Assembly: GCA_965116475.1 (NCBI GenBank)
Contig: OZ220691.1
Coordinates: 1,792,001-1,856,000 of the forward strand
Direction of reading: 5' to 3'
DNA from: Gemmatimonadota bacterium
GTDB taxonomy: Bacteria; Gemmatimonadota; Gemmatimonadetes; Palauibacterales; Palauibacteraceae
Length of the DNA stretch: 64,000 nt
Part shown: piece after piece, positions 39,442 through 41,468 of the stretch
Numbering within the stretch: position 1 is the first letter of the stretch
How the letters are laid out: the number at the start of each line of letters is the position of its first letter
The notes under the pieces: model-generated
Databases searched by the model: none
What the model was told of the DNA's origin: nothing
What the model saw: the letters and a program-made list of their open reading frames with translations, nothing else
Made by a program: the position numbers and the translations under genes

Positions 39442-39501
39442 ATGCCTCCGAAGAAGAAGCCAATCAACCAGAAAAAGGAGTTGGTACGATGTCGTTCTTG
39501 A
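39442..39501 (+). CDS. Possible 19-aa small ORF MPPKKKPINQKKELVRCRS
   Basis: TAAGGAG 7 nt before ATG at 39442; its stop lies inside the start of the next gene. Confidence 0.3.
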   Translation: MPPKKKPINQKKELVRCRS

Positions 39502-39941
39502 ACATCACAAAAGTGTCGGATACTGGTGAGCAGTGTTGGGGAGTCGTCCTGTTTGATGCGGACGGCATGCCGATCCTGCGCAGCGAGAAGGGCGTTACGA
39601 AGGTCGAGGCGCTTGCGATTGCTAAGATCCTGAAATTTGAAGGGCCTGAGGCCGTCGCGGTCGAAGAGAAGGTCGGAGAAGCAGGCGGATTGGGATGGGT
39701 GATCGAGAAGACGGACCGCGGCTGGACGGTGCGCCTTACCCGCGTAGTCGCAACCGCTTTTGATCTGCTGTTGAAACTAGAAGATGCAGAGCAGATTCAG
39801 AAGGTCACGGAGGAGGTCATGGAAGTCGTGAAGGGATGTTTGGCGCGGGTAGAGATAAAATGGGATCCACCCGAAGCGGATCCAGCTTACGACGAGAAGG
39901 AAACCGACGAAACAGAGATCGAAGGGTTACCCGGTAGTTGA
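39489..39941 (+). CDS. Hypothetical protein, YegP/DUF1508-like tandem domains with acidic C-terminal tail (candidate conjugated modifier)
   Basis: AAGGAG RBS; WGVVLFDADGMPILRSEKGVTKVEAL resembles the DUF1508 pattern F.F.LKA.NGE.I.TSE.Y.SK..A; tail DPPEADPAYDEKETDETEIEGLPGS. Confidence 0.7.
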   Translation: MSFLNITKVSDTGEQCWGVVLFDADGMPILRSEKGVTKVEALAIAKILKFEGPEAVAVEEKVGEAGGLGWVIEKTDRGWTVRLTRVVATAFDLLLKLEDAEQIQKVTEEVMEVVKGCLARVEIKWDPPEADPAYDEKETDETEIEGLPGS

Positions 39942-40304
39942 GTGAAATTGTCGACGATGATGCAACAGGAGATGAATCAGTGCGTCAACTGGTCGCTGGA
40001 GCAGATTCCCGTGCTAGAGAGTCCAGTATTGTTGATTCTTGACTACAGCCCGAGTGCGAGCGACCGACCCCTCTCCATCGCGCTTGACTGCGGATGCGGA
40101 CCGAAGTGCTGGATGACGGCGTCGGAGGTACGAAAGATCGGGGACAACGCGCCTAAGCGTCATGAGAACTACAAGGAGTTTACTTGGGAGGGACAGAGGT
40201 TTCGTCCGTATTCGATTCAATCGCTCCCGGTCGATGTCTTTGAGGACATTGATGCCCTGATGGCGGTATGTAGGAGATTGTATAACCACGTCGTGTGGTC
40301 GTAG
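39942..40304 (+). CDS. Hypothetical 120-aa protein, possibly prokaryotic E2-like
   Basis: GTG immediately follows the upstream TGA; contains CGCGPKCW and FTWEGQRFRPYS. The E2 assignment is weak. Confidence 0.6.
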   Translation: MKLSTMMQQEMNQCVNWSLEQIPVLESPVLLILDYSPSASDRPLSIALDCGCGPKCWMTASEVRKIGDNAPKRHENYKEFTWEGQRFRPYSIQSLPVDVFEDIDALMAVCRRLYNHVVWS

Positions 40305-40309
40305 GTGCA

Positions 40310-41026
40310 ATGAGCCTGGACACGCGAACAACGGCGGCTCTCGGGATCGAACTGATGGAGCGGCTGCGATCCCTGCATTACTGTATCGTGGGCTGCGGTG
40401 GGACCGGAGCGACCTTCGCCGAAATGCTCGTAAGGACTGGTGCGACACGGCTCACGTTAATAGATGGCGGGACCGTAAAGAAGTCCGATCTCAATCGGGT
40501 GTTCTCTTTTGCCGTACAGGACGTAGGAGAGCCGAAGGTGGAGGTCCTCCAAAGGCGGCTTAGAGCCGTTGGCCGACCTGAGCTCGAACTACACGCCCTG
40601 TGTGACAGCTTTAGACGACCAGACCAGATACTTGATGGTCACACGCTTGGTCAGAGCGTTCGGGACGCGGTACATGACGCCGATGTTGTGTTTGCCGCGA
40701 CCGACACCAATACATCAAGAATTGGCATCGAGGAGCTTTGCCGGAGCAAGCTACGGGGGATGTTGCTTTGCTGCGGTGTGGAAGTCGACCGGAAGGCCGG
40801 AGTTTATAGATATGAATGTGCTTGGTCACCTAGGACACCGCCCGAACGGGAGGACGTTCAGGGTTACGGTCCGGAGAATGCCTCGTTCGCTTCGATCGTC
40901 CTTGAGGCGACTGCCGTCGCGTTCACTATGCTGCTCAGCCACCTGAAGTGTGACGGTAGCCAGTTCAATCGTTACGGCAAGCGTTACGATGCGACCTTCG
41001 CACCGGTCGAAACGCCCGTTCCGTGA
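40310..41026 (+). CDS. ThiF/MoeB/E1-family adenylyltransferase
   Basis: IVGCGGTG, LTLID, SDLNR, GEPKV, DVVFAATD..SR; no CxxC zinc pairs. Confidence 0.9.
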   Translation: MSLDTRTTAALGIELMERLRSLHYCIVGCGGTGATFAEMLVRTGATRLTLIDGGTVKKSDLNRVFSFAVQDVGEPKVEVLQRRLRAVGRPELELHALCDSFRRPDQILDGHTLGQSVRDAVHDADVVFAATDTNTSRIGIEELCRSKLRGMLLCCGVEVDRKAGVYRYECAWSPRTPPEREDVQGYGPENASFASIVLEATAVAFTMLLSHLKCDGSQFNRYGKRYDATFAPVETPVP

Positions 41027-41468
41027 ACGTCCAGTGACAATACACATGAGTATTTGGCGGCCAGGACCGCTCGGAGTCGCGACCCACAATGACTCCGTCA
41101 ACGATGGGCACGAAATGCCTGTGGAGCAGCGCGACGCACCTCCTCGGTCGGTCGATCAATAGCGTTTCGAGCGTATCGATGTCAGTGGAGTAATCGCTGT
41201 CGACCCTAAGGTACTTTAAAGCGATCGCGAACTCCTTGTTCGTGACGCCGCCGAAAGGCCAGTTTTTCGAAGCTAAGTTGATAGCTTCAACGATAAGCGG
41301 CTCGGGAATAGACGGGACGGCCCAGTAAAGAGACGACAGGGCGCAGTCGTGGTGACCTTGGCCTAACTGTGTCGGGCCCTTCGTATGCCGGTCCCATGCG
41401 GCTACGGAAATCTGATCGCGAATCCATTGGAGCCGGAATAGGGACAGCCGCCACCACGAAACCGACAT
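40965..41468 (-). CDS. Hypothetical protein, C39/papain-like cysteine peptidase candidate
   Basis: QGHHDCA (Gln..Cys), GGVT, HFVPIVD..D order matches the C39-like Q/C/H/D arrangement. Start uncertain. Confidence 0.55.
   Translation of the reverse strand: MSVSWWRLSLFRLQWIRDQISVAAWDRHTKGPTQLGQGHHDCALSSLYWAVPSIPEPLIVEAINLASKNWPFGGVTNKEFAIALKYLRVDSDYSTDIDTLETLLIDRPRRCVALLHRHFVPIVDGVIVGRDSERSWPPNTHVYCHWTFTERAFRPVRRSHRNACRND

Follow-up and report, generated by a model that had tools for sequence, protein, structure and literature searches.

Can an enzyme cascade of the ubiquitin type, with an activating enzyme (E1) and a conjugating enzyme (E2), work on a protein that lacks the ubiquitin fold? A β-grasp tag is what defines conjugation of the ubiquitin type, and the bacterial Bil and Bub systems keep it. 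The question is raised by four small genes, g1 to g4, on a stretch of 64,000 nucleotides (nt) from a Gemmatimonadota bacterium (assembly GCA_965116475.1, contig OZ220691.1, positions 1,792,001 to 1,856,000 of the forward strand). The whole stretch was analysed and is referred to as the window. An earlier note, made from the letters alone, had proposed that the genes form a conjugation system with g1 as its substrate. We think it fairly probable that they make up a protein-conjugation module that spreads horizontally, is related to Bub (6E) and uses a tag without the ubiquitin fold. On these in silico results, we class the system as a variant of Bub that lacks the β-grasp. The parts of the module, with their positions in the window, strand and length in amino acids (aa), are:

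39489-39941, + strand: g1, candidate modifier, an open reading frame (ORF) of 150 aa with AGGAG 8-12 nt upstream of the ATG
39861-39938, + strand: tail of g1 (W125-S150), proposed recognition element for E1, E2 and peptidase, with the C-terminus that would be activated
39939-39941, + strand: in-frame TGA between g1 and g2, from in-frame translation of the window and eight related loci
39942-40304, + strand: g2, putative diverged E2 resembling BubB, 120 aa, with a GTG start directly after the g1 TGA
40310-41026, + strand: g3, minimal E1/ThiF-type adenylating enzyme, 238 aa from the ATG at 40310
40965-41468, - strand: g4, putative papain-like (C39-type) cysteine peptidase, 167 aa from its ATG

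Recurrence of the module and the fold of its proposed tag

A search with a g1 profile, using one genome per species, generated nine loci. Eight of them carry g1, g2, g3 and a convergent g4 in the same order, and the neighbourhood evidence given below consists of these eight. Their amino-acid identity to the window is 34-75%, and the window and 7/8 loci have the four ORFs unbroken. The ninth locus (L009) was rejected as a chance match, with 49 residues aligned and no matching ORF. Co-conservation, which the earlier note had named as a check on its proposal, was found: all four genes occur together in 8/9 loci from several phyla, and this recurrence exceeds chance. The hosts account for two Binatia loci, three Bryobacterales loci (two on one contig), one from Vicinamibacterales, one from Azotimanducaceae and one from an unclassified bacterium. 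Such scattered hosts indicate that the module moves horizontally. The two loci on one Bryobacterales contig (L007 and L008) are module copies about 22 kb apart in opposite orientation, with 62-71% amino-acid identity between their four-gene modules and a shorter g1 (126 aa) with a conserved tail.

The g1 protein has 34 homologues. Its AlphaFold (AF2) model, with a predicted local distance difference test (pLDDT) score of 74, has two β-β-β-α repeats (residues 3-58 and 69-126) and an unstructured end. The top Foldseek matches were E. coli YegP (2k8e) and SO3888 (2k49), both with probability 1.00, and residues 1-126 gave template modelling (TM) scores to the target of 0.68 and 0.57, respectively. 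YegP/DUF1508 was the only confident fold, and neither the model nor Foldseek gave a β-grasp, as the earlier note had supposed. The Pfam DUF1508 family (PF07411) was left unmatched by 24/24 g1 members at E values up to 5. As modelled, and at the level of fold only, g1 is a tandem DUF1508/YegP protein. YegP shares the fold but has neither the conserved PGS tail nor E1 and E2 partners. Searches of g1, g2 and g4 against Pfam, NCBIfam, PADLOC and PHROGs found no match, and PDB sequence searches with three profiles (A1, A2 and A3) gave nothing significant.

The last 26 residues of g1 follow the pattern WDPPEADPAY..K.TD.T...G.PGS. Mean column identity is 0.857 for the tail versus 0.685 for each folded repeat in 21/24 rows of the alignment, with P0022, P0023 and P0032 left out because they differ in architecture or are a fragment. 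G149 does not vary, and at least 90% of the sequences keep S150. In the monomer model the tail has a pLDDT below 50. The apparently unstructured end ...EIEGLPGS picked out in the earlier note is thus both present and conserved. Among the 24 aligned sequences, 15 stop at PGS, six continue into g2-like sequence, two have another C-terminus and one is a fragment. In P0022 and P0023, the DUF1508 pair and WDPPE are kept, but the short tail gives way to about 70 additional residues. These resemble a β-grasp of the Multiubiquitin type, which would make the two proteins DUF1508-Ubl1, an assignment that Pfam and PDB sequence searches left unconfirmed.

The earlier note had suggested modelling g1 with the ThiF-like enzyme. 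Two copies of g3 and one of g1 were submitted to complex prediction, with alignments of 9 and 24 rows. The interaction prediction score from aligned errors (ipSAE) was 0.82, 0.82 and 0.79, versus 0.00 for the best of three controls. The runs share at least 96% of their contacts, and the pLDDT of the partner is at least 81. In calibration of the tool, 116/157 solved complexes and 2/215 mismatched pairs reached the mark, counts that hold only roughly for a three-chain job with our own alignments. Solved complexes of an E1 with the tail of a ubiquitin-like protein (Ubl) exist, and part of the signal may therefore be learned, though g1 is no β-grasp. In the best run, g1 residues 140-150 contact g3 residues 28 and 30-33 (the GxGxxG motif) and 130-134 and 137 (Asp and Arg of the ATP-Mg site), as well as the strand 167-177 and residues 183-187, including Y186. 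The first DUF1508 repeat (g1 residues 12-16 and 37-39) also contacts the E1 in the model. The prediction supports binding of the g1 tail in the E1 ATP site, the entry that the earlier note had envisaged.

Candidates for E1, E2 and peptidase

The g3 protein matches Pfam ThiF (1.1e-27) and keeps all the adenylation residues, in agreement with its earlier naming as a ThiF/E1 enzyme. Invariant columns among nine sequences are R6, GCGGTG 28-33, D52, N62-R63, K76 and D132..R137. It is a bare ThiF/adenylation domain of 238 aa, and the alignment of profile residues 3-17 to the start of the E1 core means that the adenylation domain runs from the N-terminus on. Y186 (40865-40867) is invariant within GYGPxNAS, in a loop after the strand 167-172, and C170 (40817-40819) is invariant just before it. 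No conserved Cys occurs at residues 173-190, where the limits of the loop are inferred from sequence and from contacts in the complex model. Profile matches were to UBA1 (4e-16), MccB (5e-13), ThiF (2e-12), PaaA (1.7e-10) and BubCD (3e-10), and also to TcdA and UBA5. The curated NCBIfam models for ThiF/MoeB gave at best 62.6 bits versus a cut-off of 159. The E1-E2 profiles of PADLOC matched g3 weakly (best 4e-14), over the adenylation core.

A sulfur-carrier role of the ThiF/MoeB kind was considered and rejected, since a ThiS/MoaD partner and genes for thiamine or molybdenum cofactor (Moco) synthesis are missing beside g3. The earlier note had remarked on this, and no such genes were found adjoining g3. 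The nearest loosely related genes in the window are yjbQ (55378-55905) and molybdoenzyme subunits more than 12 kb away.

The earlier note had put g2 forward as the E2. The AF2 model of g2 has a pLDDT of 89.9, and its sole confident fold match was Citrobacter BubB (9eae_C), with probability 1.00, E value 7e-3 and TM scores of 0.59/0.56. The next matches had probabilities of 0.57 or less, and a search of viral structures (BFVD) gave nothing above 0.4. S91, C56, C110 and H116 are invariant in an alignment of 12 sequences. S91 (40212-40214) lies just before the C-terminal helices and C56 is at 40107-40109; on conservation, these two are candidate catalytic residues.

The junction of g1 and g2 had not been remarked on before. 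The two genes are in one reading frame, parted only by a single TGA. In 5/8 loci (L001-L005) they form a single ORF reading ...G(L/I)PGS-(G/R)-(P/A)Q(L/I)S..., and P0006 and P0021 are additional fusions. A stop codon replaces the Gly/Arg codon of the fused relatives, TGA in the window and TAG in L007 and L008, and in the split forms the E2 begins one or two codons past the stop. The TAG in L007 and L008 speaks against selenocysteine at the TGA of the window. Ser is retained in all split forms and the next residue is variable, so that the scissile bond may follow S150 rather than G149. Only five stand-alone g2 homologues were found, because the length window of the protein search left out full-length fusions. 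In L006, an 11-nt direct duplication at the PGS junction shifts the frame. Without the duplication, L006 positions 7400-7460 would read GIPGS-stop; this could be an assembly error, an inactivating change or a phase-type change.

A comparable precursor exists in type I Bub (6E.1, made up of BubAB, BubCD and BubE), where BubAB is a Ubl-E2 precursor and the JAB domain of BubCD cuts right after the conserved Gly (Ye, Gong, Chambers and Corbett, 10.1101/2024.11.21.623953). The likeness lies in the modifier-E2 precursor, which is joined at PGS here and cut after a conserved Gly there.

The g4 protein has homologues in 88 clusters at 90% identity, and the family amounts to 77 representatives among 1.84 billion proteins. 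Among 46 diverse members, each of H40, C42 and H118 is kept by at least 90%, and D131 is invariant in a closer set of 39. In P0177 and P0194, C42 and H118 are lost together. Conservation gives the following candidate triad:

41343-41345, - strand: C42 of g4
41115-41117, - strand: H118 of g4
41076-41078, - strand: D131 of g4

In a protein atlas based on a protein language model, g4 adjoins phage-rich clusters with DUF261 (15-32% of members, score 0.95, 172-177 shared features). With DUF261 set aside, the nearest clusters are Peptidase_C39, C39_2, C70 and IpaJ_protease (scores 0.91-0.92, 120-159 shared features). The Cys/His pair and these neighbours are in line with the C39-like peptidase of the earlier note, and we regard g4 as a putative C39-type peptidase of an unnamed family. 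It resembles C39 and clan CA peptidases in its small size and its Cys...His(...Asp) order, and it differs from C39 in having no ABC transporter attached and no Pfam or PDB sequence match. C39 peptidases cleave at GG, GA or GS, which would fit a Gly-Ser junction. Pfam scans of the 39 members and of 46/77 remote representatives gave no relevant family. Pfam matches of P0199 and P0200 were discarded as repeat-protein noise, and a literature search on DUF261 gave nothing usable.

The convergent 3' ends of g3 and g4 share 62 nt (40965-41026), and an overlap of similar size occurs in L001-L005. The g4 tail in this region is variable and is missing from many homologues. It may therefore be a run-on extension rather than functional sequence.

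From these parts a possible order of events can be drawn. By sequence, the tag is produced as a g1-g2 precursor in most relatives and already split by the stop codon in the window. The peptidase g4 would cut the G-x-P-G-S junction, exposing the C-terminus of g1, and probably also removes conjugates. A g3 dimer is predicted to bind the disordered tail and thread it into the ATP site, where g3 would adenylate the terminal carboxylate by the chemistry of the E1 family. By analogy with Bub, the activated tail may next be taken over, beneath the crossover loop of the E1, by Y186 (the Bub-like choice) or C170, and then pass through g2 (S91 or C56) to a side chain of the target. The route would be by oxyesters, from Y186 to S91 as in Bub, or by thioesters, from C170 to C56. 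The functional cargo would be the DUF1508 body of g1, which may bind nucleic acid or serve as a sensor.

Probable relation to Bub and competing explanations

The earlier note knew of no described system with this composition. In the full-text literature searched, which leaves most subscription journals outside, no description of the four-gene composition was found, and PADLOC does not recognise the system, as the earlier note had expected. That part of the claim stood. The wider claim of novelty did not, given the close kinship to Bub (6E), described in 2024; this kinship makes the system a Bub variant and not an unprecedented one. Bub operons include modifier-E2 fusion genes, and their transfer uses Tyr/Ser oxyesters (10.1101/2024.11.21.623953).

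The module is probably related to Bub operons, which it resembles in several respects. The tag gene is fused 5' of the E2 gene with a junction that contains Gly, the modelled E2 has the BubB fold, and the ThiF/UBA5-type adenylation domain has an invariant Tyr in the presumed region of the crossover loop. Both are set among defence islands and mobile elements. In the relatives of the window, the neighbours are type I restriction-modification (R-M) subunits, an integrase with an S24 repressor, Fic, a helicase-nuclease, an IS1595 transposase with a methylase, and, in L008, an IetA-like ATPase with an S8 peptidase. A divergent upstream gene with HTH_3 and Peptidase_M78 domains is found in 5/8 loci (L001-L005), and these genes are mutually orthologous (39-81% identity). 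CapH and CapP regulators stand beside 31% of Bub operons (10.1101/2024.11.21.623953), and the XRE plus M78 domain pair beside 5/8 relatives is of the same kind. The defence-island setting together with this divergent, CapH/CapP-like regulator points to an anti-phage or stress-response role.

There are also differences from Bub. The tag has no β-grasp, whereas a Bub Ubl contains one or more β-grasp domains with a conserved Gly at the end. Here G149 is conserved but is followed by Ser, giving a PGS junction and not Gly alone. The g3 protein has no fused JAB/JAMM peptidase as in type I Bub. The Bub peptidase BubE (DUF6527, PF20137), with Ser/His and a C4 zinc site, is absent, and g4, a member of an unnamed family with a Cys/His pair, is in its place. 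The g2 protein lacks the Ser-x-His of BubB, in which an invariant catalytic Ser is accompanied by His/Asp or Lys/His. Finally, both E1 and E2 keep an invariant Cys here, and the crossover loop of the Bub E1 has none. Bil stands further off: g3 is a single adenylation domain of 238 aa, with no JAB and no β-grasp.

Gong et al. (10.1101/2024.11.21.623966, PMC11601603) list seven Bub Ubls with tandem DUF1508 domains at the N-terminus. All seven of these DUF1508-Ubl1 proteins have a β-grasp after the DUF1508 and belong to type II operons with an E2-E1 fusion and DUF6527, from Vibrio, Shewanella, Pseudoalteromonas and Photobacterium (PMC11601603). A search of Table S1 of that paper gave no entry that lacks a β-grasp or names a cysteine. 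In both groups the conjugated protein starts with tandem DUF1508, but here a tail of about 25 residues takes the place of the β-grasp.

Several points weigh against the reading of the genes as a Bub-related conjugation module. Every step of the mechanism beyond gene content is inference. The complex score comes from shallow alignments of our own, outside the calibration of the tool, and may owe something to solved E1-tail complexes. Known E1-Ubl recognition depends on the β-grasp, which g1 lacks, and the terminal residue as encoded is Ser in place of the usual Gly. By sequence, g3 is no nearer to BubCD than to UBA1, TcdA, UBA5, MccB or ThiF. The match of g2 to BubB is modest (E value 7e-3, root-mean-square deviation 5.4 Å, 16% identity), no canonical E2 was found in the fold search, and no E2 family was matched by sequence in Pfam, NCBIfam, PADLOC or PDB. 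The Ser-x-His motif of BubB is not conserved in g2, and S91 and C56 are both invariant. The link of g4 to C39 consists of language-model neighbours that share 120-159/256 features with it, and the family is present in 15-78% of the cluster members. The XRE-M78 regulator is absent from the window. Protection against phage by Bub operons has not been shown, as far as the available text of these sources goes (10.1101/2024.11.21.623953; PMC13373217).

A different assignment of function deserves the most attention among the alternatives, though we hold it to be unlikely. The g1 protein could be a regulated sensor or effector whose DUF1508 body is activated or localised by tethering of its tail, with g4 as the off-switch, much as Cap2 conjugates the C-terminus of a CD-NTase in the cyclic-oligonucleotide-based anti-phage signalling system (CBASS). 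Type II CBASS, Pycsar and MBL systems conjugate an enzyme without a β-grasp through its C-terminus (10.1101/2024.11.21.623953). In PMC12065111, tandem DUF1508 is likened to Whirly-type binders of single-stranded nucleic acid and proposed as a sensor in the Menshen protein NsnA, and the predicted E1 interface of g1 takes in DUF1508 residues 12-16 and 37-39. The likeness to Cap2/Cap3 lies in E1/E2 activity on a flexible C-terminal tail outside the β-grasp, opposed by a dedicated peptidase. In type II CBASS, however, a CD-NTase is the substrate, E2 and E1 are fused in the Atg7-like Cap2, and the peptidase Cap3 is of the JAB type; a JAB, CD-NTase or effector domain was not found in any of the four module proteins, whose E1 and E2 come from separate genes. 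The layout with the tag before the E2 and the fold of the E2 fit Bub, not Cap2, and the four genes encode no nuclease, pore-former or NADase effector domain. The chemistry of this alternative equals that of the conjugation module, and the two differ only in which partner carries the function.

Less likely again is a chemistry at the C-terminus of g1 that involves no transfer to another protein. In this case g3 would act like MccB, PaaA or ThiF, and adenylation of the g1 C-terminus would lead to a nucleotidylated, cyclised or thiocarboxylated end. The role of g4 would be maturation of the protein or release of a small product, and g2 would be a scaffold and not an E2. The g3 profile matches MccB (5e-13), ThiF (2e-12) and PaaA (1.7e-10) about as well as BubCD, and a terminal Ser rather than Gly also suits this explanation. 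A conserved tail near a C39-type peptidase recalls the processing of leader and core peptides. Yet the 238-aa g3 has neither a rhodanese domain nor the N-terminal peptide-clamp extension of MccB-type enzymes, and the substrate is a folded g1 of 150 aa, not a short precursor. Its 125-residue folded part is conserved throughout, unlike a leader plus core. The module contains no sulfurtransferase, exporter, transporter or immunity gene, and the sole confident fold match of g2 is an E2.

It is highly improbable that the genes are a decayed Bub-type operon that no longer conjugates: three defining Bub parts (β-grasp, JAB and DUF6527) are absent, the L006 junction is frameshifted by the 11-nt duplication and PADLOC does not recognise the system, but the window and 7/8 loci, from distant phyla and with 34-75% identity, have kept four intact ORFs, no part of g1 is better conserved than the tail, the E1 catalytic residues are invariant, and the g4 family keeps its Cys/His pair across 77 representatives.

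The conjugation module related to Bub remains our preferred reading. A more specific version of it is offered tentatively, since its parts are taken jointly and we doubt that they would all hold together. In this version, a ubiquitin-type E1-E2 cascade would run without a ubiquitin fold, and for recognition the E1 would need only the disordered tail of about 25 residues. The end, possibly Ser-terminal, would be made at P-G-S by cysteine peptidases of a new family, and transfer would use Tyr/Ser oxyesters. The immune response would consist in covalent attachment of the nucleic-acid-binding DUF1508 module to targets in the phage or the host.

If the preferred reading is true, a Bub-type pathway has swapped its β-grasp for a short linear motif, which would be a minimal and portable E1 recognition tag. 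DUF1508 plus β-grasp in type II Bub and DUF1508 plus tail here would form a natural series for what E1 recognition needs. The unnamed Cys/His peptidase family (77 representative clusters) would supply a candidate processing and deconjugating enzyme. The widespread and unexplained YegP/DUF1508 fold would gain a concrete, testable biochemical role in defence islands.

Genomic setting

The tight coupling of the first three genes and the convergent fourth were as first described, with a gap of 5 nt between g2 and g3 (40305-40309). Alternative starts would extend g3 to 243 aa (GTG at 40295) and g4 to 171 aa (TTG at 41480). The flanks also bore out the earlier assignment. Upstream are IetA (PADLOC 5e-119) and IetS (1121 bits), a pair (35944-39418) on the strand of g1 that ends 70 nt 5' of it. 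Downstream are a NotI-like restriction endonuclease, a Dcm (C-5 cytosine) methylase and Vsr, which form a compact type II R-M block at 42066-44868 with GC at third codon positions (GC3) of 0.67-0.69.

The lower GC content seen in the earlier note was confirmed, at 0.55-0.60 versus about 0.70, with GC3 of 0.62-0.70 for island genes and 0.85-0.96 for the surrounding host genes. The single island was not. The gene queF (preQ1 synthase, 41551-41964), with a host-like GC3 of 0.85, lies between g4 and the R-M genes, which makes two low-GC blocks, one with IetAS and the module and the other with R-M and vsr. No direct repeats bounding the island were found, there are no transfer RNA genes in the window, and a promoter/terminator scan of 39300-41700 was uninformative. 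The start of g4 is on the queF strand, about 80 nt past the end of that gene, so that read-through from queF into g4 is conceivable.

In L008, the IetA-like AAA ATPase and S8 peptidase genes (11078-14070) lie about 1.3 kb from the module. IetAS-type pairs therefore adjoin 2/9 modules, perhaps by chance, within defence islands, or perhaps because the two are linked in function. The genes with HTH_3 and Peptidase_M78 domains are at 5274-6865 in L001, 5273-6864 in L002, 5790-6869 in L003, 5266-6888 in L004 and 4809-5921 in L005. After this region, L001, L002 and L004 have in common a gene of about 166 aa, with a weak PIN match in L004.

Elsewhere the window is ordinary chromosome, with genes for PolA, PriA, a sigma factor and RND efflux. 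It also carries two serine-hydrolase genes (2385-3647 and 30539-32038) of the β-lactamase/D-aminopeptidase fold. Both score 76-80 bits versus a class C β-lactamase cut-off of 415, and they look like ordinary hydrolases of the penicillin-binding type.

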